DNA of 64,000 nucleotides from an uncultured Gemmatimonadota bacterium (GTDB taxonomy: Bacteria > Gemmatimonadota > Gemmatimonadetes > Palauibacterales > Palauibacteraceae), in NCBI GenBank assembly GCA_964602635.1, contig CAZRRU010000131.1, positions 37,320 to 101,319 on the forward strand, written 5' to 3'. The translations under genes were made by a program, and so were the position numbers. The first letter of the stretch is position 1. Every line of letters starts with the position of its first letter. The notes beneath the pieces are model-generated. The model had not been told where the DNA came from. It worked only from the letters and a program-made list of their open reading frames with translations, and made no database searches. Shown here one piece after another: positions 35,217-63,198 of this stretch.

Positions 35217-36067
35217 CCGAGCGTCTTCCTGAGGCCCGGTTCACGGGGGAGCTGCCGGCGACGCTCGCACACAGGTTGCTGCACGCGCCCGGATCGCCGC
35301 CGGACCGCTGGGTCTTGTTTCTGCACGGCTTCATGGGCGCCGGCCGGAATTGGGCATCGATCGGCCGCGGGCTGGTGGGCGCGAGACCCGACTGGGGCGT
35401 GGTCCTCGTGGATCTTCGCCTGCACGGGGAAAGCCAGGGCTTTTCCCCACCTCACACCGTGGCCGCCAGCGCAACCGACGTCAATTCATTGGTGCTTCAC
35501 CTCGGCGCCACCGAGGCGGTGATCGTCGGCCACTCGTTCGGGGGCAAGGTGGCGCTGGCTGCCGCGCGGTCGGGCGACACCGTCCTGCGGCAGGTCTGGG
35601 CGATCGACAGCACTCCGTCGGTGGGGAGGACGGAAGCAGGAGCGGCTCGCCTCCTGGCCTTGCTGGCCGGGCTGCCGGAACGGTTTGAAGACCGGTCCGT
35701 GCTGGTTGCGGCGGTGCGGGAGGCGGGCTTCAACGCCCATCTGGCCGAGTGGACGGCCACGAACCTGGCCAGGCGGCCTGATGGGTACGGCTGGAAGTTC
35801 GACCTGGCGTCTCTCGACCTGCTTCTCGAGGACTTCTATCGGGAGGACCTGTGGTCCGTGGTGGACCCGTCCGTGCCGGGGCGAGAGCTGTTTTTCATCC
35901 GGGCGACCCGCGGCTCGATCATGGACGACGCCGCGGCGGCGCGAATCAGGCGTCTGGAGGCGGATGGAGAATGCGTTCGGCTGATCGAGCTGGACGGCGG
36001 TCACTGGCTCAACATGGCGAACCCCGACGGGCTCCTGGAACTGCTGGTCCGGTTCCTGCCTCGCTGA
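35213..36067 (+). CDS. Alpha/beta-fold hydrolase
   Basis: VLFLHGFMGAGRNW, nucleophile elbow GHSFGG, C-terminal GGHWLNMANP (catalytic His). ATGA overlap with the GT4 gene. Confidence 0.8.
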   Translation: MTERLPEARFTGELPATLAHRLLHAPGSPPDRWVLFLHGFMGAGRNWASIGRGLVGARPDWGVVLVDLRLHGESQGFSPPHTVAASATDVNSLVLHLGATEAVIVGHSFGGKVALAAARSGDTVLRQVWAIDSTPSVGRTEAGAARLLALLAGLPERFEDRSVLVAAVREAGFNAHLAEWTATNLARRPDGYGWKFDLASLDLLLEDFYREDLWSVVDPSVPGRELFFIRATRGSIMDDAAAARIRRLEADGECVRLIELDGGHWLNMANPDGLLELLVRFLPR

Positions 36068-36100
36068 CCGGGCCACGCTGACCGACCGCAGTGCGCCGCG

Positions 36101-36568
36101 TCAGAAGATCTCTCGCCACGAACCGTCGATCGGGCGGACTGGATCGGTCCGGAGCCGGCGGCCCAGCAGGCTGGTCTGGCGGGCCGCGATCCCCGGATCG
36201 CCGGCGCTCGCACTCCCGACGGTCGCCCTGGAGGCGATCCTGTACACTGTCGTCACCGAATCCGCCTGGATGAGCTTGACGGCATGGACGGTGACCGTTC
36301 CGTTCCCGATCTCCCACGAGGCTACGGACGGCTGTGTCCCGGAGGCCAGCCAGGTAGCCAGTCCGGCCTCCGCGAGGTGAAACGCCTGGCTCGACGCCGC
36401 GTGGCTGACGCCGATTCGCAGCTCTGCCCTGGCGGCGAGAAAGATCCCGGTCGCGCCCAGATAGAGTGCGGCGAGCACGACCAGTACGGCCACGAGGGCG
36501 AAGCCCCTCCGACTCCCCACGACGGCTGTGCACGGGTGCTTGCTGTTTGGCCGGTGAGTCAGGAGCAT
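36101..36568 (-). CDS. PilX-N-like pseudopilin-type protein (orphan)
   Basis: RRGFALVAVLVVLAALYLGATGIFLAARAELRIGVSHAASSQAFHLAEAGL matches the PilX N-terminal pattern (hydrophobic helix ... QAF..AEAG). Confidence 0.55.
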   Translation of the reverse strand: MLLTHRPNSKHPCTAVVGSRRGFALVAVLVVLAALYLGATGIFLAARAELRIGVSHAASSQAFHLAEAGLATWLASGTQPSVASWEIGNGTVTVHAVKLIQADSVTTVYRIASRATVGSASAGDPGIAARQTSLLGRRLRTDPVRPIDGSWREIF

Positions 36569-36855
36569 ACGCTTCGGTGGTCCTATTCCCGCACCTGTCC
36601 GAGCGCCCGTCCAGTCTCGGAGTCCAGCGTCAACACCGAGTCAATTCGGCACGAACGTCCCTTTTGCGCATGGTCTTGGCTTTTTGCCACCTCGTCCCCT
36701 GTCGGGCGCCGCTCGCGGAAGTTTCGAATCGGGACGCCACGACCCCGTAAAATGCTTGCTCGCTTGTAGATAACACGATCGCGCGCCTCCGCTTGCCTGC
36801 ATGGCAGCCGGTTTGCCCTCATAAGCCGGGAGAATTCATGGAAGGAGCGGAAGCC

Positions 36856-37080
36856 ATGCAGTACAGCGCGACGACCGAGGCTCTGCTCCACGCGATCAAG
36901 AACGACGTTCGCAACCGCGTGGATGACATCGTGGACTACGCCGAGAACGCCGCGATGACGCTGACCTCGGAGAACGAGGTGGACGCGGTCCTGGAGCGGG
37001 CACTACTCGCGGTCGAGAAGACACTGTCCGAAGCCGCCCGGGCGATGGCGCGCGAGATCCACAGGGAGCGGATGTACTAG
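36856..37080 (+). CDS. Small all-helical hypothetical protein (74 aa)
   Basis: ATG at 36856, 8 nt after GGAGCGG/AAGGAG. MQYSATTEALLHAIKNDVRNRVDDIVDYAENAAMTL...; no recognisable motif. Confidence 0.4.
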   Translation: MQYSATTEALLHAIKNDVRNRVDDIVDYAENAAMTLTSENEVDAVLERALLAVEKTLSEAARAMAREIHRERMY

Positions 37081-37391
37081 CGCTTCTCGTTGCTCGCGGT
37101 ACTCCCTCATGTTATCGATATTCACGGGTGGATGGGTTTTCGTCCCGGGCAGCAACCGATTCTCGATACGCGCAATCTTTCGCATCGTGCCGCGCGTCCC
37201 GGGAGGGGGCGGCCACGATGTATATAAAGCAAACACGCGGAGTTACAGGCCTGGATACCCAGATCGGCCCGGTGGCCGCGTTCTTGCCGAATCCGGGAGA
37301 CTGTGATATACCGCGTAGACGCGGTGGTCGGACGGGGATCGAGGCCTCTGGTCTCCCGCCGGGCCGCTGACCCGCGGAAGGCGGAGACGGA

Positions 37392-39179
37392 ATGGACGAG
37401 AAGGAGAAGATGAGCGCACGAAAACGCGAAGCCAGAGCGGCCGCCTTCCAGTCCGACGCGGAGTCGCAGGATGTGACGGCCGGGAGCGATGGGGAGGGGC
37501 AGCCGACATGGTTGGACCGAGTGAGGGATATCGCCGCGCCGGAGCCTGACGAGCCGCTATGGACGCCGGAGCCCGTTGGCCCCTCCGAGCCCATGTGGGA
37601 TGCCACTGACACGGTCGAACCAGCTCCCCCGGAAGCCTCCACGCTCGAAGTCTCGCCGCCCGAGCCGTCGGTTCCCGATCCTGGAGCGATTCCGGAGACT
37701 GCCGAGGCTGCGCTCGAGGAAAACGTCGGGCTGAGCGTGCGCCGCCTGCGCAAGGCCGCCATCGAGATGGCGGGCCGCGACGCCGAGGCAAGTCTCCCGG
37801 ACCCCGGGGCCGAAGGCAGGGCCGAGTCGGAGGAGGAGCTGCGCGATCGCGCCGTTTCGTTGTTCCTCAACTGGCGGGCCAGGGAGCGCTCGCGCCTCAA
37901 CTCGGTGGTCGGGGAGATGGAGGGACGGATCACGAGGATCCTGGCCGGCATTTCGCTGGACAACGATCGTTTCGGACGCGTCACGAGCGAGCTGTTCCGC
38001 CTGCAAAGGCGATGGGACATGAACCGCAGTGTCGTGGAGAACACGCTGGAGGAGGAAACCGAGGAGCAGGATGACCAGCCGGCCACCCGCCAGTTCAAGA
38101 CGCACTGGTATGCGCTCGCCATCGGCTTCCTCGGCATCGTGGAATTCCTCGCCAACGCGCCTGTGTTCGGTGCGCTTCTTCCCCGCGATCCGCTGACCGA
38201 GCAGCAGTTGCGCTACGTCGCGGAGACGAGTGAGGGGTGGCTCGCCGGGGGCCTGCGGGTGGCGTCTCAGTTCATCCTCAGGCCGGACGCCGCCCTTCTG
38301 GCGGCTGGTGTGGTCACGTTCCTGTGCGTCCTCGCGCATTTCTTCGGCCACTCGCTTCGGTCACTGATGATGCACCAGTCCAGCCGCCGCACGGGCGAGA
38401 CGCTGGGTAAGCGCTCGGCGGGCGAGTTCGTGGTGCCGATGATCCTGTCGGGGATCGGCCTGACGCTGGTGATCGGTGTCCTTTTCGAGGCGCGCGTCAC
38501 CCTGGGTGAGGTCGCCGAGGATCGGTTCGCACAGGACAGCGCGAAGATCGAGGAGCTGCGACGCACGGCGAGCTGGCTCCGGGTGGACGGCAACCTCGTT
38601 GCCGCGAACGAGCAGGCAAACCGGGCCGACGACCTGGAAGCGCTCGCCAAGGAGCAGCGGGAGTACGCGGCATCGATGAGTGGGCTGAGCTTCCCGATCC
38701 TGCTGCTCAACACGACGCTCATCCTCGTCGCGATATCGGCTGCCTACTTCCATATGCGCGACAGGCGGCGAGATCGGTTCAACGACACGCCATTCGAGCG
38801 CCAGCGGCGCGAGCTGGTGGACCTCGGCGATTCGATTCAGCAGCGCGTGGCGGATGCCATGGGAGACGCGGTGCTTACCATCCGCGGCCTGACCAGCTTA
38901 CTTTCCGAAACACCTCTGCGGGAGGCGCCCGCGCTGGCCAGCCAGCTCGAGGCGACGGTCGTAGCGTACCGGGCGGAGAACGGGCGGTTGCGAGGTCTGG
39001 ACACCAGGGAGATACAGGCGTTCGCCGAGCCCGTCGAGCTGCAGCTCGAAGTGCAGGAGCGGGACATGCGTGACTTGCTGATGCGCGACCCGGAGAGCTA
39101 CGAGAGCGAGCGCCGTGGCCTGCAGGAGACCTTCGAGAAGACTCGGGCCAAGTTCACGGAAGAGGCTACGGCATGGTGA
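37392..39179 (+). CDS. Orphan 595-aa membrane protein: acidic/Pro-rich N-region, 3 TM helices, charged helical segment, fourth TM, long charged helical tail
   Basis: G/C-rich third positions along the whole frame. TM helices: WYALAIGFLGIVEFLANAPVFGALL, ALLAAGVVTFLCVLAHFFGHSL, FVVPMILSGIGLTLVIGVLFEA, LSFPILLLNTTLILVAISAAYFHM. No catalytic motif recognised. Confidence 0.7.
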   Translation: MDEKEKMSARKREARAAAFQSDAESQDVTAGSDGEGQPTWLDRVRDIAAPEPDEPLWTPEPVGPSEPMWDATDTVEPAPPEASTLEVSPPEPSVPDPGAIPETAEAALEENVGLSVRRLRKAAIEMAGRDAEASLPDPGAEGRAESEEELRDRAVSLFLNWRARERSRLNSVVGEMEGRITRILAGISLDNDRFGRVTSELFRLQRRWDMNRSVVENTLEEETEEQDDQPATRQFKTHWYALAIGFLGIVEFLANAPVFGALLPRDPLTEQQLRYVAETSEGWLAGGLRVASQFILRPDAALLAAGVVTFLCVLAHFFGHSLRSLMMHQSSRRTGETLGKRSAGEFVVPMILSGIGLTLVIGVLFEARVTLGEVAEDRFAQDSAKIEELRRTASWLRVDGNLVAANEQANRADDLEALAKEQREYAASMSGLSFPILLLNTTLILVAISAAYFHMRDRRRDRFNDTPFERQRRELVDLGDSIQQRVADAMGDAVLTIRGLTSLLSETPLREAPALASQLEATVVAYRAENGRLRGLDTREIQAFAEPVELQLEVQERDMRDLLMRDPESYESERRGLQETFEKTRAKFTEEATAW

Positions 39180-39955
39180 TCCGAAAGTCCTGGGTGCTGG
39201 CCTCCCTGCTCGGCGCGATGGCGCTAGCGGGCTGCGGCACACAGGAGGGCGCTGCGTCGGGTGGCGAGGGCGAAGGTGGAGTGGTCAAGCGATCGACGCC
39301 GCAGCTGGTGGTATTCGTCTACGATCGCTCGACCAGTATCTCGCACCATCAGCTCGATCTTGCACGCCAGCTCACGAACGACAGGATCCGCAAGCTGGAT
39401 CACGGTGACCGGATCGCCGCTCACCAGCTGCTTCAGCTCTCTCTCGAAGAGCCGCCGCAGCGTTGGTCCGAGACCGTCCCGCAACGACAGTTCACCGAGC
39501 AGGCCATGATGCGGGACTCGGTGACCCGAGCTCGATTCCTCCGGGACGCCCAGGACTACCTCGTCGCGTTTACCGACACCACGAGTCGAGACAACATCGA
39601 CGGTACGGACATCCTGTCGACGCTGCACGATGTGAGCGCCGACCTCCAGGCCGCACCTGGGCGCGAGGCCACGCTGTACATCTTCTCGGACATGCTTCAG
39701 TCGAACCGAAGCATCGACATGGAGGGACTGCGGAAGATGCCTCCGTCCGGCTGGATCGAACGCGAAAAGGCCAACGAAACGCTTCCCGATCTTTCAGGCC
39801 TGTGCGTATACGTGATCGGGGCCCGGGTGGACACGCGCGAGAGCCAGCGCGTGAAGGATTTCTGGCAGGAGTATTTCGAGGCGACGGGCGCCGCTTTCGA
39901 GTCGCGCAACTACACGCTGCGTCCGGTGGAGCTCCCCGAGCACCCCTGTACCTGA
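39173..39955 (+). CDS. vWA-like (MIDAS-type) lipoprotein, hypothetical
   Basis: Lipobox LLGAMALAG|C. Beta-alpha alternation with VVFVYDRSTSIS (D-x-S-x-S), DGTDILSTL (Thr) and LYIFSDMLQS (Asp), in vWA MIDAS order. The ATG overlaps the upstream stop by 7 nt (ATGGTGA). Confidence 0.55.
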   Translation: MVIRKSWVLASLLGAMALAGCGTQEGAASGGEGEGGVVKRSTPQLVVFVYDRSTSISHHQLDLARQLTNDRIRKLDHGDRIAAHQLLQLSLEEPPQRWSETVPQRQFTEQAMMRDSVTRARFLRDAQDYLVAFTDTTSRDNIDGTDILSTLHDVSADLQAAPGREATLYIFSDMLQSNRSIDMEGLRKMPPSGWIEREKANETLPDLSGLCVYVIGARVDTRESQRVKDFWQEYFEATGAAFESRNYTLRPVELPEHPCT

Positions 39956-39971
39956 GACGTACGCGAGCGCC

Positions 39972-40343
39972 TCAGAACGGCTTGGTCCGGGCGAGCCAGG
40001 CGCCGATCACACCTAGAATCGGCGCCGCGATCCACACCAGGCGGCTCAGGTCGGGCCTCACCGTCGGCACCGCCAGCAAAGCCCCTACGGCCATCCAGAT
40101 CCCCAACTTGGCCCACGTCCATCCTGGCATACCGGCGCCCATCGTTCCGGACGCTCCCAACCACCCGAACCCACCGAGCAGGATGAGGAACAATCCGACA
40201 CCATAGGTGACGGTGGTCAGCCGCCGAGCCCCATTCGAGTCTTTTGTTCCCCCGTTGATGCCGTGCAGCGCCAGCCCGCCAAGCGACATGAAGACCATGA
40301 GGATTCCGGCAACGTGCACGAGCTTGTATGTGTCGGGTGACAT
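39972..40343 (-). CDS. Small four-TM membrane protein, hypothetical
   Basis: Four hydrophobic helices (LVHVAGILMVFMSLGGLAL; TTVTYGVGLFLILLGGFGWL; KLGIWMAVGALLAV; LVWIAAPILGVIGAWL). Confidence 0.6.
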   Translation of the reverse strand: MSPDTYKLVHVAGILMVFMSLGGLALHGINGGTKDSNGARRLTTVTYGVGLFLILLGGFGWLGASGTMGAGMPGWTWAKLGIWMAVGALLAVPTVRPDLSRLVWIAAPILGVIGAWLARTKPF

Positions 40344-40494
40344 CCAGACTGCTCCTCTCTCGGGTTCGGGACGGGTCCGACCGTGGGCGCCCCTGCGGCG
40401 CCGGCCGGTTCCGGGCTACCTTAGACGGATTCGCCGCCCGGGGGAAGAGGATGGCGCGGCGAGCGGTATGCCATTGAACAGGAGATGTCGCCGA

Positions 40495-40956
40495 ATGAGT
40501 GATCCAATCTATCTGGCTCGTTCGACCGTGCGGAAGATCGAGGGTGTCCACCGTGAGGCGGAGATCGCCGCTGGGGTCCGATTCGAGATGGGGGTGCACG
40601 GGGCCATCAAGGAACACTACCGGCTGGAGGGGAAGAACCTGCCCCTTCCCGTGGACTACATCGTGGCCGCGACCGGGGGGTGAATGCTGGGCACACTCAA
40701 CGGCGCACTGGAGGTGCGCGGGATCATCCTGGCGCCCGGGGACATCGTGGCCGAGGTGGAGGGCGTGAACGAGATGGTGGAGGGACTACCCGTACTCACC
40801 CGGATCGTCGTGCGCTACCGGCTCAGAGTCCCGGCTGCTGTCAGAGACAAGGTAGATCGGGCGCTCGAGCGCCACGCGTCGAAGTGTCCGTCGGCCGCCA
40901 GTCTGAGGGGCTCGGTATCGGTGGATTGGGAGGCCGAGGTCGAAGAAAGGACCTGA
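40495..40956 (+). CDS. OsmC/YhfA-like thiol peroxidase family protein with an in-frame TGA (40681-40683) at the first catalytic Cys position: candidate selenoprotein (alternatively a pseudogene)
   Basis: Joined translation: ...LPVDYIVAATGG-U-MLGTLNGALEVRG...RALERHASKCPSAASL. This matches the OsmC family AAGGC and K(Y)CP/S motifs (compare E. coli YhfA, LMAAGGCSAIDV...AEKYCSVALML, from memory). AGGAG lies 10 nt upstream of the ATG at 40495. The two ORF-track pieces (40207-40683 and 40684-40956) are in the same frame. Confidence 0.6.
40703..40719 (+). promoter_or_regulatory. Candidate bacterial SECIS-like hairpin downstream of the in-frame TGA
   Basis: GCGCAC-UGGAG-GUGCGC: a 6-bp GC-rich stem and a 5-nt loop with GG. 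The stem starts 20 nt after the UGA and the loop G lies about 27 nt downstream, within the spacing usual for bSECIS elements. Confidence 0.35.
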
Positions 40957-54028: not shown

Positions 54029-54849
54029 GCTGTTGTTCCTCGCTTTCGCCGTGTGTCGAAAGGTAAGCCGGTTGCGGCGCTCTCTCCAGAGCGACGAAGG
54101 CGGGACAGGAAGGCCCCGTCATCGCCGCGGCACACGATCTCGACCTCCCAGCCCGCTCTCGTGGCCAGAATCGACAGCGTGTCGGGATCGATGTACAGCT
54201 GGCTGAACGGATCGCCCCGCTGACCGTCGAACTCGAGTTGGAACTGAATCTCGCCCACGTACCGGCCGTCTTCCCGGCAGGCCAGCCGCACCCCATCCGA
54301 GGTGCGCCAGTCGGACGCGAAACGCCGCATGTCCGCAGAATCGGCGATGACTTGACCGCCCGGGGTTACGATGTCGTCCAGGCCCGAGAGAAATCGGTCG
54401 AGCCCGGCAAGTGTCTCTGGCAGTCCCCAGCCGTTCATGAGCATCAGCACCGTATCCCATCTTTCTGCCGGCAGTTGGAACACGCTGCCAGGCCGGACGT
54501 CGGTCACGCCCCGGCGGCGCAGCAGTTCCACTAGCTCGGGAAGGATCTCGACCGCACAGGTCGAATGCCCACGCTCCTGCAGGGCCAGCGCATGGCATCC
54601 GGCCCCTGCGCCCACGTCGAGCACCCGGCCGGTGCACAGGTCCAGGGCCGTGCGTTCCAGGAGCGGGAGCCCGTCCTCTCCCCGGAAGAACCACGCGGCC
54701 GGCAGGAGGTCGGAATCTCCCAGGTCGTCCACCACGAGGATGCTCGCGTCCTTGTTTCCCCTCTCGAACGAGAGCAGCGCCCGGGCGTGAGGCTCCCAGC
54801 ACGCCCGCATACGGGACGTCACCCTGCTCTCGCCATCGGCTACCGCCAC
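54025..54849 (-). CDS. Class I SAM-dependent methyltransferase
   Basis: Motif I RVLDVGAGAGCHALAL, then DTVLMLMNG. The stop overlaps the LOG start (ATGA). Confidence 0.8.
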   Translation of the reverse strand: MAVADGESRVTSRMRACWEPHARALLSFERGNKDASILVVDDLGDSDLLPAAWFFRGEDGLPLLERTALDLCTGRVLDVGAGAGCHALALQERGHSTCAVEILPELVELLRRRGVTDVRPGSVFQLPAERWDTVLMLMNGWGLPETLAGLDRFLSGLDDIVTPGGQVIADSADMRRFASDWRTSDGVRLACREDGRYVGEIQFQLEFDGQRGDPFSQLYIDPDTLSILATRAGWEVEIVCRGDDGAFLSRLRRSGESAATGLPFDTRRKRGTTA

Positions 54850-54952
54850 GCAACCTCACTCTTCTTCTGAACACGACGGGCTCGACCGTGGAGCCAGGTG
54901 CCGTCGCGCCGCCGCCGTCGTACCTTGCCATACCCCATTCGAGGAGCCACCC

Positions 54953-55336
54953 GTGGATCCCGACTGCCCGTTCTGCGATCCTCCACCCGACCGCGTCTGG
55001 ATCGGCTACGACCTGACGATCGCGACGCCGGACATGTTCCCGGCCGCTGAAGGCCACACACTGGTCCTGCCGCGCCGTCACGTCCAGAGCGTGTTCGACC
55101 TCGAGGGCGACGAGTGGGACGAATTGTGGGATCTGGTCTCGACGGTGCGCGACGAATTGCAGTCGCTGCATCGGCCCGACGGCTTCACCATAGGCATCAA
55201 CGACGGGCTCGCTGCCGGGCAGACCGTCGACCACGCGCACGTGCACGTGATCCCGCGTCACCTGGGCGACGTGGCTGATCCGACCGGAGGATTGCGCGGT
55301 ATCCTGCCTCACAAGGCCAGGTACTGGGAACGCTGA
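54953..55336 (+). CDS. HIT family hydrolase
   Basis: CPFC...GHTLVLPRRHV and the histidine triad HAHVHVIPR. Confidence 0.9.
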   Translation: MDPDCPFCDPPPDRVWIGYDLTIATPDMFPAAEGHTLVLPRRHVQSVFDLEGDEWDELWDLVSTVRDELQSLHRPDGFTIGINDGLAAGQTVDHAHVHVIPRHLGDVADPTGGLRGILPHKARYWER

Positions 55337-55352
55337 GATCCGACCCCGGCGC

Positions 55353-55883
55353 TCAGCCGGGCGGAAAGTCTTTCAGCAGCTTGGCGACGGCGTCCTGGAC
55401 CGTTGTCACTCGCTGCTCCGGCGAGTCCATTTCATCGATCGTCTTCGAAGCGCTGCCGCGCCATACGAGTTCGTTCGATTCGCGATCGATCACGTCGAGG
55501 ATCAACGTTCCTTCGCTGTACGTTCGGACGGTAGTGGTCGTCATGCCGCCACCCCAGTAGCCTCCCCACCAGCCGCCGGCTCCGTATCCGTACGTATCGT
55601 ACTGTTGCCGGTCCTGCGTCCCCGTGTGATATGCGATGAGGACGTCGGCCGAGCCCGGTCGATCGGCCTTCCTGAGTCCCTTCGCGGTGAGGTCTTCATC
55701 AATGGCGGCGTACATTCGGCGCAGCATGATCTCGCTCACGCCTCCTTCGAGGCCCTGCTCCATCCAGGCGTACGTCGAGAGACCACTGAAATCGTAGGAT
55801 TGATCCCAGTCCGACGTCGTCGAGATGCCGGAGCAGCCGGCGACGGCGAGTCCCAGACCGGCGATAGCTATCCATTTCCTCAT
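55353..55883 (-). CDS. DUF4136-like lipoprotein
   Basis: Lipobox MRKWIAIAGLGLAVAG|C. Gly/Trp/Tyr-rich loop and EGTLILDVIDRESNELVWRGSA, typical of DUF4136. Confidence 0.65.
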   Translation of the reverse strand: MRKWIAIAGLGLAVAGCSGISTTSDWDQSYDFSGLSTYAWMEQGLEGGVSEIMLRRMYAAIDEDLTAKGLRKADRPGSADVLIAYHTGTQDRQQYDTYGYGAGGWWGGYWGGGMTTTTVRTYSEGTLILDVIDRESNELVWRGSASKTIDEMDSPEQRVTTVQDAVAKLLKDFPPG

Positions 55884-56004
55884 CGTGCTCTCCCGGAGCG
55901 GGTAGGTGCGAATCCGAGCCCCAGTCTAATCCCCCGATCGGAGGGCAACAACACCTGCCGGATTGGCGCGAATCTCGGCCCGCCGGGAAGGGCTCATACT
56001 TGCC

Positions 56005-56033
56005 TTGTGACAGCGTTCACGTGTCGATATCAT
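56005..56033 (+). promoter_or_regulatory. Candidate sigma70-type promoter of sdhCAB
   Basis: TTGTGA (56005-56010), 17-nt spacer, TATCAT (56028-56033), about 40 nt upstream of the GAGGAG-ATG at 56075. Confidence 0.4.
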
Positions 56034-56074
56034 GCGGAGTTATCCTCACCGATCCTCGCTCTGAGGAGTGACCT

Positions 56075-56752
56075 ATGAGACGGGTTTACTCCCTGTACAG
56101 CACCTCGGTCGGCAAGAAGTACACGATGGCTGTATCGGGTGCGATCTTCGTGTTGTTCGTGATCGTCCACATGTTCGGCAACCTCAAGGTCTATCTCGGG
56201 CCCGAGGCATTCAATCATTACGCGGAGGGACTGCGTGAGTTCGGAGAGCCCTTCCTGGGCTACGAGTGGTTTCTGTGGGTCTTCCGGGTCGGCCTCGCCG
56301 TCTTTCTGCTGATTCACACCGTAGCCGCGTGGCAGACGTCCAGGCAGAGCTGGGCCGCGCGGGGGCAGAAGTACAAGAAGAAGGACAACCTCGTGTTCCA
56401 TTACGCCTCGCGCACCATGCGCTGGGGCGGCGTGGCCCTCCTGCTCTTCGTCGTGTACCACATTCTCCACCTGACAACGGGCACGCTGCACCCGGACTTC
56501 ATTCCCGGAGATGCGTACCACAACTTCATCACCGGATTCCGCTCCCTGCCCGTCGTGGCCGTGTATTTCGTGGCCATGATCGCGTTGGGCCTGCACCTGT
56601 ACCACGGGATCTGGAGCGCTTTCCAGACCATGGGCCTGGACGGACCCCGCATCAAGAAATGGCGCGAGCCGATGGCTCTTGGTGTGGCCCTCGTGGTGGT
56701 GCTGGTGAACCTGTCATTCCCGGTGGCCGTCTTCACCGGGATCATTCCGTAG
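56075..56752 (+). CDS. sdhC: Succinate dehydrogenase/fumarate reductase cytochrome b subunit (single 5-TM b558 type)
   Basis: 225 aa, five TM helices with conserved His residues ([37 protein letters not shown]). Lies immediately upstream of sdhA. Confidence 0.85.
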
Positions 56753-56765
56753 AAGGGAGGGAGAC

Positions 56766-58679
56766 ATGGAGCTGCGCTCGAAGGTCCCCTCCGGTCCCAT
56801 CGACCAGAAGTGGACGAAGCACAAGTTCGACATGAAGCTGGTGAACCCGGCCAACAAGCGGAAATACCACGTGATCGTGGTGGGCTCCGGACTCGCCGGG
56901 GCGTCCGCTTCCGCGACGCTGGCAGAGCTCGGGTACCACGTGAGCTGCTTCACCTACCACGACAGCCCGCGGCGGGCGCACAGCATCGCCGCGCAAGGCG
57001 GAATCAACGCGGCGAAGAACTATCAGGGAGATGGAGACAGCATCTTCCGCCTGTTCTACGACACGGTGAAGGGCGGCGATTTCCGTGCCCGCGAGGCCAA
57101 CGTGTACCGACTGGCCGAAGTCTCGAACGAGATCATCGACCAGTGCGTGGCGCAGGGAATCCCGTTCGCCCGAGAGTACGGGGGCCTGCTGGCGAACCGC
57201 TCGTTCGGCGGTGCGCAGGTCTCACGAACGTTCTACGCCCGCGGCCAGACCGGGCAGCAGCTCCTTCTGGGCGCCTACCAGGCCCTGATGAAGGAAGTGC
57301 ACCGGGGCCAGGTCCAGCTCTACAACCAGCACGAGATGCTGGACTTGATCATGGTGGATGGACAGGCCCGGGGGATCGTCACCCGTCACCTGGTGACCGG
57401 CAAGATCGAAGCGCACCTGGCCGACGCGGTAGCCCTGGGCACCGGCGGGTACTCCAACGCCTTCTACCTGTCCACGAACGCCATGTACTGCAATGTCACG
57501 GCAGCCTGGCGGGCCTACCGCCGCGGCGCGGGCTTCGCGAATCCGTGCTACACGCAGATCCACCCGACCTGCATCCCGGTGGCCGGTGACTACCAGTCGA
57601 AGCTCACCCTGATGAGCGAATCCCTGCGCAACGACGGTCGCATATGGGTGTCTCAGAAGGTGGAAGACGACCGGGCTCCCGGCGACATCCCCGAGGACGA
57701 GCGCGACTACTACCTGGAACGCATGTATCCGGCCTTCGGGAACCTGGTTCCTCGGGACCTGGCGTCCCGCCGTGCCAAGGACATGTGCGACCAGGGGAAG
57801 GGCGTGGGCGACACCAAGCTCGGCGTGTACCTCGACTTCGAGGACGCGATCCAGCGCCTCGGCGCGGACGTGATCGAAGCGAGGTACGGCAACCTGTTCG
57901 AGATGTACGAGCGCATCACGGGTGAGGACCCTTACAAGGTGCCCATGCGAATCTATCCCGCGCCGCACTACACGATGGGCGGTCTGTGGGTGGACTACAA
58001 TCTCATGACGACGCTTCCCGGGCTATACGCGATCGGCGAGGCGAACTTCTCGGATCACGGAGCCAACCGGCTCGGGGCCAGCGCCCTCATGCAGGGCGTG
58101 GCGGATGGGTACTTCGTCCTTCCGTACACGATCGCCGACTATCTGGCGCAGGCAAGACTGGACCCGGTCCCCGAGGATCACGCCGAAGTCCTCGGCACAC
58201 TGGAAGAGGTCCGGTCGCGCAACGCCCGCCTGCTGGCCCTCGACGGCGACCGAACCATCAACTCGTTCCACAAGGAGCTGGGACGCATCGTCTGGGACTA
58301 TTGCGGGATGGGGCGCAGCGCGGCCGGGCTCAAGGAAGCACTTGAGAAGATCCCGGTGCTGAGGCAGGAGTTCTGGGAAAACGCGAAGGTCGTGGGCGAC
58401 GGGGAGTCGATCAACCAGACTCTCGAGCGTGCTGGCCGGGTGGCGGACTTCCTCGAGCTGGCCGAGGTCATGTGCCTCGACGCGCTGGTTCGCGAGGAGT
58501 CGTGCGGCGGCCACTTCCGCGAGGAGTACCAGACGCCGGAAGGAGAGCCCAGGCGTGACGACGAGAACTTCACACACGTGACCGTGTGGGAGTACGCCGG
58601 CGCCGACGAGGCACCCCGGGAACACAGGGAGCCCCTGGAGTTCGAATACGTTCCTCCCACGCAGAGGAGCTACAAATAA
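56766..58679 (+). CDS. sdhA: Succinate dehydrogenase/fumarate reductase flavoprotein subunit
   Basis: [14 protein letters not shown] (FAD fold), [14 protein letters not shown] (FAD-linked His), [23 protein letters not shown]. Confidence 0.97.
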
Positions 58680-59422
58680 TGAAACTCAAACTTCATGTGT
58701 GGCGGCAGGCCGAGGCGTCTGCCAGCGGACACTTCGTGACGTACGAAGCGGATGCCAGCGAGCACATGTCCTTCCTCGAGATGCTCGACGTCGTGAACGA
58801 GGAGCTCGAGTCGAAGGGTGAAGATCCGATCGCGTTCGACAGCGACTGCCGCGAGGGGATCTGCGGCACGTGCGGGATGGTGATCAACGGCCGGCCGCAC
58901 GGACCGTGGAAGCGCACGACGGTGTGCCAGCTCCACATGCGCGAGTACAGCGATGGCGATGAGATATGGATCGAGCCGTGGCGGGCAGACGGATTTCCGG
59001 TGCAAAAGGACCTGTTCGTGGACCGGTCCGCCTTCGATCGGATCGTCGCGGCGGGCGGCTACATCAGCGTCCGCACCGGAAGTGTCCCCGAGGCCAACGT
59101 AATCCTGGTCGGGCAGGACAACGCCGAAAAGTCGATGGACGCGGCCTCGTGCATAGGGTGCGGCGCCTGCGTGGCGGCCTGCCCGAACGCCTCCGCAATG
59201 CTGTTCACGTCGGCGAAGGCAGCTCATCTGAACCTCCTCCCGCAAGGGCAGCCGGAGCGCTACGGCCGCGTGCTCGACATGATCCTGACGATGGAGGCCG
59301 AGAGCTTCGGCACGTGCACGAACCACGGCGCGTGCGAGAACGCCTGCCCGAAGGAGATCAAGATCGATGTAATCGCGATGCTGAACCGCGATTACATGAA
59401 GGCGCTCCTGAAGGCGAGCTGA
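58679..59422 (+). CDS. sdhB: Succinate dehydrogenase/fumarate reductase iron-sulfur subunit
   Basis: [10 protein letters not shown]..., [15 protein letters not shown] (2Fe-2S), [13 protein letters not shown] (4Fe-4S), [13 protein letters not shown] (3Fe-4S). The ATG overlaps the sdhA TAA (TAATG). Confidence 0.95.
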
Positions 59423-59457
59423 AGCGAAAGGGCGGCGTCTTCAGAGCCTCCTTCAGG
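59407..59457 (+). promoter_or_regulatory. Nested 51-nt hairpin spanning the sdhB stop codon and part of the tenA-like Shine-Dalgarno
   Basis: Outer stem CCTGAAGG (59407-59414) / CCTTCAGG (59450-59457), 8 bp. Inner stem CTGAAG (59419-59424) / CTTCAG (59439-59444), 6 bp. 14-nt loop, no U-tract. The 3' arm overlaps GGGAG (59456-59460), just upstream of the ATG at 59466. Confidence 0.4.
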
Positions 59458-59465
59458 GAGAGAAG

Positions 59466-60128
59466 ATGAGCTTTTGCGAGACTCAGCTCGACCGACTCGC
59501 ACCGCTGTGGGAGCGTATGCTGAGCCACCCGTTCCTCGTGCAGACGCGCGACGGCACCATCCCGCACGACACGTTCGCCTCGTGGATGAGGCAGGACTAC
59601 CTGTTCGTGGAGGCTGCGATTCCCTTCCTGGCCGCCTTGATTCCCAAGGGTCCTGCCAGCCACTGGGAGCCCATGACGCAGGCGATTGGGGCGTTGATCC
59701 GGGAGCTGCGGCTGTTTGAAGAACGCGCAGAGGCAGTGGGAGTGGAGATCAAGGGCACCCGGCCCTCCTTCACCACGCACGCCTACATCCAGTTCCTCCT
59801 GGCCACGGCTCAGAACGCGTCGTACGAGGAGGCCTATACCGTGCTGTACGCCGCCGAGAAAGCCTATCACGACTCCTGGAGGATGGTCCGCGACGGACTG
59901 GACCGGACGTCACCCTGGTGGCCGTTCGTAGAGAACTGGGCCGGTCCGGAGTTCGGAGCCTACGTGGCGTACCTGCAGGTGGAGCTGGACAAGCTTGCCA
60001 GAGAGGCGGGTCCCGAACGCCTCCATCGGATGGTCGAAGCGTTCGAGACGACCGTGCGCTACGAGGTAGCCTTCTGGGAGATGGCGATGACCGGCGAGAA
60101 TTGGCCCGGGATCCCGTCCACCGACTAG
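59466..60128 (+). CDS. TenA/thiaminase-II family protein, Cys-less paralogue
   Basis: HPFLVQTRDGTIPHDTFASWMRQDYLFVE, VRYEVAFWEMA. At the position of the TenA_C catalytic Cys it reads VLYAAEKAY (no Cys). Confidence 0.8.
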   Translation: MSFCETQLDRLAPLWERMLSHPFLVQTRDGTIPHDTFASWMRQDYLFVEAAIPFLAALIPKGPASHWEPMTQAIGALIRELRLFEERAEAVGVEIKGTRPSFTTHAYIQFLLATAQNASYEEAYTVLYAAEKAYHDSWRMVRDGLDRTSPWWPFVENWAGPEFGAYVAYLQVELDKLAREAGPERLHRMVEAFETTVRYEVAFWEMAMTGENWPGIPSTD

Positions 60129-60160
60129 ACGAATCACGGCCGGGTTGCCAGGGAGGGGAC

Positions 60161-60826
60161 GTGGCGTTCACCGACGAGTTGCACGAGGCGGCGAGACATA
60201 TCTGGGACGCCCAGGTGGAGCATCCGTTCGTGGCCGGAATCTCCGACGGTACCCTGGATCGAGGGGTATTCGAACGCTGGGTGCGCCAGGACTACCTGTA
60301 CCTGGTGGAGTTCTCCCGCGTGTTCGCGTGGGCTGCTGCAAAGGCCGACCGGCTCGAGGCGATGAGCTGGTACGCGGCGGCGCTGCACCTCACGCTCAAC
60401 ACGGAGATGGCCCTTCACCGACAGTACGCAGAGCGTTTCGCCATTGGCACCGAGAAGCTGGAGGCCGAGCGGATGTGGCCCACGACCAGGGCCTACACCG
60501 ATTTCCTGGTCCGTACAGCTGCCGACGGCGACATGGCCGACCTGGTAGCGGCGCTTCTACCGTGCGTGTGGGGCTACGTGTACATCGCCGAGCGCCTCGC
60601 CGCCTCCGAACGTCCGTCGGATCAACGCTACGCCGACTGGATAGAACAGTACGCTTCCGACGAGTTCCGGGAGGCCGCGGACTGGCTCAGGTCTGAAATG
60701 GACCGGCTGGCGGCCGCAGCGTCAGAAGAGAAGCGTGCCCGCCTGACGGACCTCTTCGTGCTGTCGAGTACCTACGAATGGCGGTTCTGGGAGATGTGCT
60801 GGAGAGGTGAGACGTGGACGGTGTGA
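60161..60826 (+). CDS. tenA: TenA_C-type aminopyrimidine aminohydrolase (thiaminase II)
   Basis: HPFVAGISDGTLDRGVFERWVRQDYLYLVEF, ALLPCVWGYVYIAERL (catalytic Cys), YEWRFWEM. GTG at 60161, after GGGAGGGG. Confidence 0.85.
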   Translation: MAFTDELHEAARHIWDAQVEHPFVAGISDGTLDRGVFERWVRQDYLYLVEFSRVFAWAAAKADRLEAMSWYAAALHLTLNTEMALHRQYAERFAIGTEKLEAERMWPTTRAYTDFLVRTAADGDMADLVAALLPCVWGYVYIAERLAASERPSDQRYADWIEQYASDEFREAADWLRSEMDRLAAAASEEKRARLTDLFVLSSTYEWRFWEMCWRGETWTV

Positions 60827-60898: not shown

Positions 60899-62152
60899 TC
60901 AGTGGGACAGTCGGATCACCAGGTCCGAGGCCACCCGCTTGAACACCCCATCCAGCTCCGCCGGTGAGGGCGCGAAGTACATTCGCCCTTGCGGCTGTCT
61001 CGGGTTCACGGAACCGTGCTCGTTGGCCAGAAGGGAGAGATAGGCGAGGTCCGGACGGCCGAGCTCCGACGCGAGCGGGTTTCCGAGCCCGATCGTATAG
61101 ACGTAGACGTCGTCCGCCCGGAGCCGGTTCGCGGCCTCGAGCCCCAACTGCCGCGCGACTTCACGTCCCCTCCGACCGTGAGGCGGGTGCCCCCCTTCCA
61201 TCCACTCCCTGCAGTTCACGACGTTCAGGCACGCGTCGGCCGCCGGGCGGTCCCAGCGGTCCATCGAGATCTCGTCGGGATCATCGAAGTACCCGCGCAC
61301 CACGTTCTCTTCCGTCGCCGCGACGGCCAGGATCCGGTCCTCTCCTCCGACCGGGCCTCGGAACGCCGTGGGACGTCCGTCGGTGAAGAAGACCACCACC
61401 TTGACGGCCCTCTCCCTCGCATTCTCGCTCCTGACTTGCTGGCGGGCCAGCCGCAGGCCCTCGGCCGTGTTCGTCCACCCCAGCGACCCCATCTCCTCGA
61501 TGATTCTCTGTGTGTCCAGCGTGAAGTGCCCCTGCAGGGGGTAACGGACGCCCGCCCTGGTGTGGAAGGAAACCAGAGCGAACTGATCCAGGTCATCGTC
61601 GAAATGCGTGACGAACTCGCCGGCCGCTCTCTGCAGATCGTCCCACGCTCCGTGCGTACCGAGCGAACCGGACTGGTCGAGCACGAGCACCAGGTCGACA
61701 GGAGGCACTACTGCCGTAGCCGAAGAGCCGATGTCCACGACATCCAGACCGAGGAGGCGCATGAGTGTAGTAGGCAAGAGGCGGCGCGCCGATACCGTGA
61801 CCGTCTTCTCGCCCGCTTCGCTTAAGCCGAACGACACGCTCACCGTCGTTCCATCGGCTCCGACCTCCACCCCGTTAGCAAGTGCGACCGCGATGGCCTC
61901 ATCTCGCGCGACTGACTCGCCGGATCTGAACAGCCGCGCACCCGCGAGCACGCCCGCGTCCACGGCACGGGACAGGTGTGATCTCACCAGAAAAGCCCGA
62001 CCCGAGTCGAGAACGAGGCCGGCCATTCCGAGAAGGACTACCATTCCGCCGGCCACCATCACGATGACCGCTCCGCGCTCGCTGCGCGCGCGCTGCACGA
62101 AGCGACGCCAATGCCCGCGAAGGGCCGAGACCGGAGAAGCGAAGAATCGCAT
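60899..62152 (-). CDS. TadG-like pseudopilin with vWA domain
   Basis: N-terminal Tad motif ERGAVIVMVAGGMVVLLGMAGLVLDSGRAFLVRSHLSRAVDAGVLAGA. vWA with MIDAS VLVLDQSGSLG ... VVFFTDGRPT. Confidence 0.75.
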   Translation of the reverse strand: MRFFASPVSALRGHWRRFVQRARSERGAVIVMVAGGMVVLLGMAGLVLDSGRAFLVRSHLSRAVDAGVLAGARLFRSGESVARDEAIAVALANGVEVGADGTTVSVSFGLSEAGEKTVTVSARRLLPTTLMRLLGLDVVDIGSSATAVVPPVDLVLVLDQSGSLGTHGAWDDLQRAAGEFVTHFDDDLDQFALVSFHTRAGVRYPLQGHFTLDTQRIIEEMGSLGWTNTAEGLRLARQQVRSENARERAVKVVVFFTDGRPTAFRGPVGGEDRILAVAATEENVVRGYFDDPDEISMDRWDRPAADACLNVVNCREWMEGGHPPHGRRGREVARQLGLEAANRLRADDVYVYTIGLGNPLASELGRPDLAYLSLLANEHGSVNPRQPQGRMYFAPSPAELDGVFKRVASDLVIRLSH

Positions 62153-62186: not shown

Positions 62187-62699
62187 CTAGAAGACCGCGC
62201 GCTCGTAGATAGGGTCGGGAAGAGCGCTCTCGAACAGGCGCGCGAACGGCGTGATCGGCTCGTACCGGTAGAACACTTCCACGACGTAGTGCGTGCTGCC
62301 CCGTTCGAGGCCGTACGAGGCGAACGAAACGGGGCTGGCTCCCACGGTACCGAGCCGGCTCCGAGTCTCATAACCCGCCGACGCCACCTGGGCCAGGACC
62401 ATCGGTCCGTCGGGCCTCACCTCGATCCGGGAGACGACCGATCCACCGCGCCGCTCGAGTTGAATATCCCGACCGCTGGACGCGACGACATGGAGAACCG
62501 TATCCAGACTCGTTCCCCGCGAGGCGATGTTGGCTCCCTCGCGACTCAGCTTGGAAAGCGTGTGGGCGACGGTCAGGGCGTTTCCCACCTCGACCATGCC
62601 TAGGAACAGGAAGAGCAGCAGCGGAAGCACCAGCGCGAACTCGGCCACTGCTTGCCCGCGCGTGTCGAGCGTTCTGTGCCTACGGGATGAACGGTTCAT
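62187..62699 (-). CDS. TadE-like pseudopilin
   Basis: RGQAVAEFALVLPLLLFLFLGMVEVG (TadE N-terminal signature). Confidence 0.75.
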   Translation of the reverse strand: MNRSSRRHRTLDTRGQAVAEFALVLPLLLFLFLGMVEVGNALTVAHTLSKLSREGANIASRGTSLDTVLHVVASSGRDIQLERRGGSVVSRIEVRPDGPMVLAQVASAGYETRSRLGTVGASPVSFASYGLERGSTHYVVEVFYRYEPITPFARLFESALPDPIYERAVF

Positions 62700-63198
62700 T
62701 CTTCATTGCCGTCCGCACGGTGAAATCGACCGGAGGAAGCACATCTTCCAAGCCGGGCAGGAAGAAGCGGTAGGTGAACGAGACGCTGACCGTGACCAGC
62801 TCTTCCGGCCCGCCTCCGTCGGCGGGATCGATCACGATCGAGTCGGCGATCGCCAGATGGCCGACTTTGCTCCTCACCACCCGTCGGATCGACTCGGCAC
62901 GCGGGATCGGCTCACCTGTGTCCGGGTCGGTGAACTGCCGTCCGGTGACGGCGTACCGGGTGGCCTCTGCCACCGCGTGCTTCGCCGTCAGATGTGAGAG
63001 CCCGAGCCGTCCGAACTCGAACATGCCGAACAACAGGGAAAGGAGGAGAGGGAGAACCAGGGCGAATTCGACGATTCCCGAGCCGTGGCTCCCGCGCCAC
63101 AATCGATCTGTTGCGCCGCCGCGATATGTGGCACGTATCCGCGCCACCAGTTTGCCGGCCCCGAGCGCAGCTCGAAGCCGGGTTTTCCACATCGCCAT
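62680..63198 (-). CDS. TadE/TadF-like pseudopilin
   Basis: GSGIVEFALVLPLLLSLLFGMFEFG (TadE N-terminal signature). 20-nt overlap with the next TadE-like gene. Confidence 0.75.
   Translation of the reverse strand: MAMWKTRLRAALGAGKLVARIRATYRGGATDRLWRGSHGSGIVEFALVLPLLLSLLFGMFEFGRLGLSHLTAKHAVAEATRYAVTGRQFTDPDTGEPIPRAESIRRVVRSKVGHLAIADSIVIDPADGGGPEELVTVSVSFTYRFFLPGLEDVLPPVDFTVRTAMKNEPFIP

Follow-up and report, generated by a model that had tools for sequence, protein, structure and literature searches.

Tad/Flp pili are widespread adhesion and surface-sensing organelles. In type IVa pili and type II secretion systems, PilN/PilO/PilP and GspL/M/C link the secretin to the cytoplasmic motor and platform. 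To our knowledge, Tad/Flp pili lack a PilMNOP-type alignment complex, no equivalent of PilN/O/P or GspL/M/C is recognized in Tad systems, and little is understood of how their inner-membrane platform is coupled to periplasmic and outer components. Here, we analyze two adjacent genes, referred to as A and B, in a stretch of 64,000 nucleotides from an uncultured Gemmatimonadota bacterium (assembly GCA_964602635.1, contig CAZRRU010000131.1, positions 37,320 to 101,319; this whole stretch is called the window). Gene A is predicted to encode an inner-membrane protein with four transmembrane (TM) segments, and gene B a lipoprotein with a vWA domain that bears a MIDAS (metal-ion-dependent adhesion site). 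We propose, at a probability of roughly 0.5, that the products of A and B make up an accessory complex, not described before, that serves the Tad (Flp, type IVc) pilus of Gemmatimonadota at the inner membrane and in the periplasm.

vWA/MIDAS modules recur in type IV filament systems, as in CpaL/TadG, PilY1, and PilC1 (PMC11870444). Like B, TadG/CpaL has a vWA domain with a DxSxS...T...D MIDAS, is encoded in a tad locus, and faces the periplasm or the exterior (PMC11870444). However, B has a lipobox in place of the pilin-like N-terminal module, so that it cannot be built into the filament, and it is always paired with the four-TM protein A, a partner that TadG/CpaL lacks. The Myxococcus xanthus protein CglB and the Bdellovibrio MIDAS adhesins of the Bd0875 type are also lipoproteins whose sole recognizable domain is an integrin-I-like MIDAS vWA, and they work with an envelope-spanning machine (PMC9946355; PMC12428579). 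These proteins are outer-membrane or surface adhesins for gliding or predation, whereas B is probably located at the inner membrane, and no sequence relationship between B and the CglB/Bd0875-type proteins was found.

The pair would resemble PilN/PilO/PilP and GspL/M/C in role only, these being helical or coiled-coil inner-membrane proteins together with an inner-membrane lipoprotein (PilP). A is polytopic with four TM segments, whereas the PilN/O-type proteins are bitopic; B is predicted to have a vWA fold, whereas PilP is a beta-sandwich; and no homology of A-B to either set was detected. In the MoxR-vWA pairs (RavA-ViaA and the BatA/B-type aerotolerance operons), a vWA/MIDAS gene adjoins an AAA+ gene, as it does in a sister clade described below. 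The AAA+ protein of that clade is, however, of the classical type rather than MoxR and is absent from the arrangement in the window; moreover, B is predicted to be periplasmic, while the MoxR vWA partners are cytoplasmic or TM-anchored. DUF4407 and the MotA/ExbB/ZorA-type proteins have, like A, several TM helices and long charged helices, a likeness of general appearance only. A search of the literature on related terms returned no description of such an A-B pair. TadG/CpaL, CglB/Bd0875, and the MoxR-vWA pairs share the vWA/MIDAS idea, but none of them shares the partner, the anchoring, or the architecture. In our rating, the pair is probably a vWA module associated with type IV filaments whose membrane partner is novel.

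Results

A and B form a conserved gene pair

The two genes and their junction lie on the same strand of the window:

37392..39179, forward strand: gene A, 595 aa (predicted disordered region 1-110, stalk 112-228, four TM segments within 240-455, loop 263-299, hairpin ~368-432, tail 456-595)
39173..39955, forward strand: gene B, 260 aa (predicted signal peptide, LAG-C21 lipobox, ~20-aa Gly/Glu-rich tether, vWA domain ~43-245)
39173..39179, forward strand: A/B overlap of 7 nt, ATGGTGA (B ATG at 39173, A TGA at 39177-39179; junction gcATGGTGAtc)

An earlier note on this DNA, made from the letters alone, had given the same coordinates, lengths, and 7-nt overlap, and these read as stated in the sequence. 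The overlap itself reads as translational coupling. The GC content at third codon positions (GC3) is 0.84 in A and 0.80 in B, similar to that of the adjacent genes, and the mean column identity is 53% in the alignment of A and 71% in that of B. A and B are real genes, since GC3 far exceeds the GC content at second positions in both and since both are under strong purifying selection. Their 856 codons include TTA once, ATA twice, CTA twice, and AGA once, while the rates in the whole window are 0.26, 2.15, 1.73, and 3.78 per 1000 codons, respectively. The A/T-ending codons that had been noted as unusual are thus normal in frequency for the window, and a foreign origin of the pair was ruled out by its ordinary composition and codon usage.

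Hundreds of homologues were found for both proteins. A profile search of 1.84 billion representative proteins with A yielded 168 relatives at E<=1e-3 (clusters at 50% identity, from two phyla), and a scan of species-representative genomes found remote A proteins in Longimicrobiales, Gemmatimonadaceae, Gemmatimonadales, and Acidobacteriota (Terriglobia, 'Ca. Angelobacter'). The term "orphan" in the earlier note is therefore not appropriate for a pair with this many relatives. The A family itself is small and lineage-restricted. Wherever a locus extends past A, the next gene on that strand is B, namely in 22 remote loci (Longimicrobiales, Gemmatimonadaceae, and Acidobacteriota; ~25-35% identity) and in all close ones, and overlaps of 1-23 nt between the two genes recur in distant relatives (e.g., loci L002, L007, L009, L018, L024, L025, and L030). 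The conserved adjacency by which the earlier note had proposed to judge the pair was thus found, mostly with overlap, in all these relatives.

On a single metagenomic contig (L034, 473-2956), A and B are fused in frame into one protein of 799 aa (P0256), which may be due to a sequencing frameshift. If real, this fusion would put the C-terminus of A on the cytoplasmic side and tie B to the inner membrane. An A-B pair was also seen on a contig labelled as a metagenome-assembled genome of Pseudomonas sp. (L016), where the GC3 of the neighbouring genes (~0.70) is below that of most Gemmatimonadota loci; this contig may be misbinned, because all other A-B matches are from Gemmatimonadota or Acidobacteriota.

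A-B close the Tad operon in a sister clade

The loci from the metagenome scan were mapped by tblastn and gene tables, and three genomic settings were distinguished. In type 1, to which the window belongs, the A proteins share at least ~54% identity with that of the window, and the gene order is a PilX_N-like gene (reverse strand), a gene for a 74-aa protein (forward strand), A, and B, in synteny with the housekeeping genes for thioredoxin, an alpha/beta hydrolase, and ferritin. By these gene orders, the pair is vertically inherited in conserved synteny among housekeeping genes. In type 2, a sister clade within Gemmatimonadota/Gemmatimonadales, A is 42-55% identical to the window protein, and A-B close a full Tad/Flp operon in more than 30 loci, whose consecutive frames overlap. 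The order there is Flp pilin, A24 prepilin peptidase, TadE, RcpC, secretin, TadG-like protein, TadZ, TadA, TadB, TadC, (DUF192), AAA+ ATPase, A, and B; the A proteins of this type range from 48% to 99% identity to the copy in L002. In type 3, remote pairs stand alone: clustering of the open reading frames (ORFs) of 26 remote loci revealed no conserved third gene, and the genes upstream of these pairs are unrelated to one another (bactofilin-like, ClpP, HD-domain, Uma2, and histidine kinase genes). The earlier note missed the Tad operon link of the sister clade as well as the promoters and the membership of the 74-aa protein described below.

The AAA+ ATPase (449-564 aa) is always located between tadC, sometimes after the DUF192 gene, and A in the sister clade, for example in:

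L002, 6025-7485: AAA+ ATPase
L033, 1360-2835: AAA+ ATPase
L116, 10001-11377: AAA+ ATPase
L117, 10001-11350: AAA+ ATPase

It is of the classical clade, with spastin and CDC48 as best PDB matches and no MoxR-family match. It belongs to a very large family, with at least 7965 matches in the database, whose members carry no annotation beyond 'ATP-binding protein' or 'predicted ATPase with chaperone activity', and its role in Tad operons seems undescribed. An unrecognized N-terminal domain was also seen in the sister-clade protein. No AAA+ gene is present near A-B in the window. Besides, one sub-branch of the sister clade has a gene for a 107-aa coiled-coil protein after B (L002, 9898-10221; same place in L003, L004, and L036-L040).

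The window holds Tad-related genes of its own at a distance of 22 kb from A-B:

62680-63198 and 62187-62699, reverse strand: two TadE-like genes
60899-62152, reverse strand: TadG-like vWA protein (Tad, E=2.5e-8; VWA, E=1e-15, full-scoring)

B was considered as a paralogue of this TadG-like vWA protein, and no relationship was detected. Searches of A, B, and 38 A relatives against the Tad families of Pfam and NCBIfam (TadD, TadE/F, TadG, RcpB, RcpC, and others) gave no match.

Gene A encodes a predicted polytopic protein of a new family

Residues 1-110 of A are acidic and Pro-rich (17 E, 10 D, and 17 P), vary between relatives, and are predicted to be disordered, while conservation is strong from residue ~112 on. 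The AlphaFold2 (AF2) model has an overall confidence (pLDDT) of 71 and places helices at 112-132 and 145-228 with pLDDT of ~87-97, followed, after the membrane region, by a helical tail (456-595). Hydropathy revealed four hydrophobic segments (240-264, 293-325, 342-375, and 426-455), of which TM3 and TM4 run on into a charged, acidic helical hairpin of ~65 aa (~368-432; nucleotides 38493-38687). The anatomy given in the earlier note, with an acidic/Pro-rich N-region, four TM helices, a charged helix, and a helical tail, agrees with both analyses.

In the alignments, a set of polar or special TM residues is near-invariant across the family (E/D251, N255, P257, H316, G319, R323, and N440), as are three acidic residues of the first external loop (D266, E270, and D299), and the tail carries the motif R527-x-E529-N530-G531-R532-x-R534-x-x-D537...F544. 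Topology, like lipoprotein processing, was judged by sequence rules. We infer an N-in/C-in topology, in which loop 263-299 and the acidic hairpin would be periplasmic, while the stalk (112-228) and the tail would be cytoplasmic. This assignment is favoured because Arg/Lys-rich segments flank TM2 and TM3 on one side (loop 324-344) and follow TM4; because the fusion P0256 joins the tail of A straight to the signal/anchor helix of B, which requires a cytoplasmic C-terminus; and because some Acidobacteriota B proteins carry a TM anchor instead of a lipobox.

No match to A was found in Pfam, NCBIfam, PADLOC, PHROGs, or the PDB sequences, whether a single sequence, 39 family members, or a profile was used. 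A itself had no match to Pfam or PADLOC at E<=1, and the 39 family members had no real family match to Pfam at E<=0.1; a hit of one relative to TadE (E=0.094) was taken as noise. Neither DUF4407, to which the earlier note had suggested a comparison, nor MotA/ExbB/ZorA nor any defence family gave a profile match with A and its relatives, and all were rejected as homologues. The structural look-alikes returned by Foldseek (MukB, Rad50, and chemoreceptors) share only long helices (E>0.01, TM-scores of ~0.1) and are not meaningful. The absence of a named family, as the note had it, thus holds for both library and fold searches, and by these searches A represents a new, unnamed protein family.

Gene B encodes a predicted MIDAS vWA lipoprotein

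The N-terminus of B, MVIRKSWVLASLLGAMALAG followed by C21, has a positive n-region, a hydrophobic h-region, and the lipobox A-L-A-G-C21, so that the LAG-C lipobox noticed earlier is indeed present. The lipobox Cys is kept in 28 of the 32 orthologues, the others having a TM-like anchor or no pattern-detectable lipobox; in some Acidobacteriota, a TM anchor replaces the lipobox. Two further cysteines, C211 and C259, are kept in 32/32 orthologues, a pattern suggestive of a disulfide bond and, with it, of a periplasmic position for B. The natural A-B fusion and the TM-anchored orthologues further indicate that B is probably kept at the inner membrane.

Downstream of the tether, B has the motifs DRSTS (51-55), GTD (144-146), and FSD (171-173). 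The AF2 model, built with 28 homologues (pTM of 0.73), shows the vWA order of elements (beta1-alpha1-beta2-beta3-alpha-beta4-alpha-beta5-alpha-beta6), in which D51-R-S53-T-S55 follows strand 44-50, T145 precedes helix 147-160, and D173 follows strand 165-171. Between 30 and 32 of the 32 orthologues, proteins of only ~30% identity among them, retain the MIDAS residues D51, S53, S55, T145, and D173. When the model was searched against the PDB with Foldseek, all 32 matches at E<=1e-3 were chains holding vWA or vWA-like domains (probability 0.98-1.0), including CLCA1, vWF A1, collagen VI, ITIH1, and the Sec23/24 trunk, with a chain of a parvovirus B19 capsid entry at rank 1; the TM-scores by target were 0.5-0.6 for single-domain targets. 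By sequence profile, the similarity to PF00092 is below threshold (17.4 bits against a cut-off of 23.8; E=0.0054; residues 46-123 only), and a PDB profile search gave only E=0.29.

On the strength of the predicted fold and the conserved residues, B is a true, if divergent, vWA domain with a MIDAS, carried on a lipid anchor, and its MIDAS is predicted to bind a divalent cation. The vWA/MIDAS reading of B in the earlier note is thus borne out by the model, the Foldseek matches, and the orthologues: the AlphaFold and Foldseek check it had called for returned a vWA fold with MIDAS residues at the canonical positions. In describing the pair as a membrane helical scaffold joined by a metal-dependent binding domain outside the cytoplasm, the note also captured the anatomy fairly.

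Putative sigma-54-type promoters precede A and a 74-aa partner gene

The pair lies behind two spacers, of 287 nt (36569-36855, with the ATG of the small gene taken as 36856) and 311 nt (37081-37391); with this start, the spacer lengths of the earlier note were reproduced. A crude gene calling leaves apparent gaps in the window that exceed these two spacers, which the note had taken for the longest. The following features were identified here:

36856..37080, forward strand: 74-aa all-helical protein with a GGAAGGAG ribosome-binding site, directly upstream of A in the window's clade
36802..36817, forward strand: sigma-54-type (-24/-12) promoter TGGCAGCCGGTTTGCC, putative, 54 nt before the ATG of the 74-aa gene
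37273..37288, forward strand: sigma-54-type (-24/-12) promoter TGGCCGCGTTCTTGCC, putative, 119 nt before the ATG of A
37110..37120, forward strand: AT-rich palindrome TGTTATCGATA, ~160 nt upstream of the A promoter

The 74-aa protein is present in all type-1 loci with upstream DNA, has 74-77 aa in relatives, and is highly conserved among 28 distinct sequences; judged by this distribution, it belongs to the module in the window's clade. Its family matches are all weak and sub-threshold, and a 95-aa ORF that contains it (36793-37080) gave a weak coiled-coil match to the ZorA tail of PADLOC (E=0.003, 14 bits). The 107-aa coiled-coil protein of L002 and the AAA+ protein were considered as its kin, and both are unrelated to it.

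The element TGGCCGCGTTCTTGCC is the most conserved block of the otherwise divergent A leader in the alignment and fits the sigma-54 consensus TGGCAC-N5-TTGCW in both sequence and spacing. All 29 distinct type-1 loci have TGGC-N7-TTGC upstream of A, and 27 of 28 have it upstream of the 74-aa gene, while the whole window has six matches to this pattern against 1.34 expected. The other four matches in the window are at 818, 22690 (reverse strand), 45783, and 47328; of these, at least the one at 45783 is inside a long ORF and is probably a chance match. At 157-186 nt upstream of the -24 element, TGTTATCG/TTATCGAT, a palindromic TGTTATCGAT element, is found in 19-20 of 29 type-1 loci. This distance is typical of an activator site, and the palindrome is a candidate site for a bacterial enhancer-binding protein (bEBP) or for integration host factor (IHF). 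Taken together, the putative sigma-54 dependence of the A-B and 74-aa units is well supported by sequence. Sigma-54 is generally tied to flagella, pili, and the cell exterior (PMC3162934). A scan for sigma-70 promoters and terminators gave no signal above chance, and an Rfam search of 36000-40500 found no credible RNA family.

Other neighbouring genes

On the other side of the 287-nt spacer is a divergent gene with a possible pilus connection:

36101..36568, reverse strand: 155-aa protein, weakly matching PilX_N (minor-pilin-like), with a hydrophobic helix at the N-terminus

The match to Pfam PilX_N (E=9.8e-4) is under the gathering score, and the counterparts in L005 and L001 are likewise weak. 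The gene has the same position in relatives of 78-100% identity and in L005 and L006; it is a possible member of the module.

In the stretch downstream of B (39956-40343 of the window, compared with 12571-13777 of L035), a gene for a four-TM protein of 123 aa follows B after 16 nt in the window. In most close relatives, a MOSC-domain gene (~270 aa, reverse strand) lies between B and this four-TM gene, which is then ~1.6 kb after A; the MOSC gene is missing at this place in the window. Between the module and the Tad pseudopilins, ordinary metabolic genes are located at 54119-60826:

55353-55883: DUF4136 lipoprotein
56766-58679: succinate dehydrogenase/fumarate reductase flavoprotein
58586-59422: succinate dehydrogenase/fumarate reductase iron-sulfur subunit
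59466-60128 and 59918-60826: TENA/THI-4/PQQC-family gene, matched by two overlapping ORFs

A 397-aa ORF at the start of this region (54119-55312) had no Pfam match.

Discussion

The proposal that A-B are an accessory complex of the Tad pilus is based on the operon-level link to Tad genes in the type-2 loci, which is the strongest functional signal, and weaker signals agree with it, namely the minor-pilin-like neighbour of type 1, the TadE-TadE-TadG(vWA) genes 22 kb away in the window, and the recurrence of vWA/MIDAS domains in filament systems. Several findings weigh against it. Operon membership in one clade proves co-expression, but not a shared machine. None of the 22 remote A-B loci has a Tad gene within 10 kb, and their neighbours vary; in the window, A-B are not adjacent to tadZABC, and no tadZABC genes, and no Tad ATPase or platform gene, are present in its 64 kb. 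Moreover, no similarity of A to known pilus proteins was detected, and the TM region of the AF2 model of A is of low confidence (pLDDT of 45-70). As for regulation, neither a GAFTGA-type activator nor rpoN was seen in the window or the fetched loci.

If A-B do serve the Tad pilus, A would be a polytopic inner-membrane scaffold in which the helical regions on the N-terminal (112-228) and C-terminal (456-595) sides together make up a long stalk in the cytoplasm. B would be exported, lipid-anchored at C21, and would present its vWA domain on the ~20-residue tether, with the MIDAS holding a divalent cation whose coordination may be completed by an acidic side chain of the periplasmic loop of A or of a pilus component (a pseudopilin, RcpC, or the secretin). 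The pair would thereby link periplasmic pilus parts to a cytoplasmic stalk with conserved docking motifs and could act as an alignment/anchoring or force-sensing unit, with a role like that of PilN/O/P or of the TadG/CpaL vWA module but without homology to either. This specific mechanism is less certain than the link to the pilus, and the physical contact of A with B, the ligand of the MIDAS, and the role in pilus assembly or sensing are our suggestions from the predicted anatomy and the gene order. Likewise, the pair may ancestrally have been co-translated with tadZ-tadA-tadB-tadC and the AAA+ ATPase. In the window's lineage, it would have become detached from the tad operon and joined to the 74-aa protein, with both units expressed on demand from sigma-54-type promoters via an enhancer-binding activator.

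A different explanation for the same data is that A-B act as an autonomous envelope sensor or tether, in which the MIDAS would bind an envelope or external ligand and A would signal to the stalk (integrin-like or RcsF-IgaA-like), while the position in the tad operon would reflect co-regulation for life on surfaces. We regard this as a tentative possibility. It would account for the 22 remote loci in which A-B stand alone with variable neighbours, for the regulated promoter and the dedicated small partner that the pair has in the window's clade, and for the conserved cytoplasmic motifs of A (AGLP..D; R527-E529-N530-R532-R534-D537), which resemble partner-binding sites. However, it leaves unexplained why A-B are inside the tad operon, with overlapping frames, in more than 30 type-2 loci across ~50% sequence divergence, and a kinase, cyclase, or other output domain was detected neither in A nor next to it.

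The conserved polar TM residues of A (E/D251 to N440, as listed above), together with the conserved metal site of B, could also point to a cation channel or transporter with B as its periplasmic metal-binding subunit. This is quite improbable, given that A is unlike any transporter or channel family by sequence or fold and that a transporter would not typically have ~60% of its length in a cytoplasmic helical stalk, as is predicted for A. In vWA domains, the MIDAS metal serves to bind protein ligands and is not carried, which also argues against such a role. The conflict-type vWA module considered in the earlier note, that is, an anti-phage function, is highly improbable. vWA domains are found in some conflict systems, a Uma2-type or antitoxin-like gene neighbours the pair in a few remote loci, and the type-2 AAA+ protein shows a very weak similarity to the anti-phage ATPase IteA (E=7e-5, 22 bits against a cut-off of 510). 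But neither A nor B has a PADLOC or PHROG match, their composition and codon usage are normal, and they are vertically inherited in conserved synteny among housekeeping genes; in addition, the vWA domain is predicted to be periplasmic, and the operon partner is a pilus machine.

A more far-reaching version of the Tad accessory reading is that A and B, with the AAA+ protein where present, constitute an integrin-like trans-membrane coupling unit of Tad pili that has been rewired to sigma-54 and the 74-aa partner in the window's lineage. In it, a periplasmic MIDAS bond would engage a pilus or envelope ligand under load, and A would transmit this to a cytoplasmic stalk of ~120 Angstrom. We consider this version rather unlikely; if true, it would equip bacteria with a mechanosensory connection dedicated to outside-in (or inside-out) signalling and would take the place of the alignment/sensing complex that is missing from type IVc pili.

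Overall, the pair is a concrete candidate for a coupling or sensing part of the Tad machine in an abundant, little-studied phylum. The analysis gives a context to two families of 'hypothetical proteins', and to the 74-aa one, in marine-sediment and soil Gemmatimonadota and some Acidobacteriota, and the two conserved sigma-54-type promoters offer a handle on regulation in Gemmatimonadota. Should the link to the pilus prove wrong, A-B would still be a conserved envelope module without a described counterpart.

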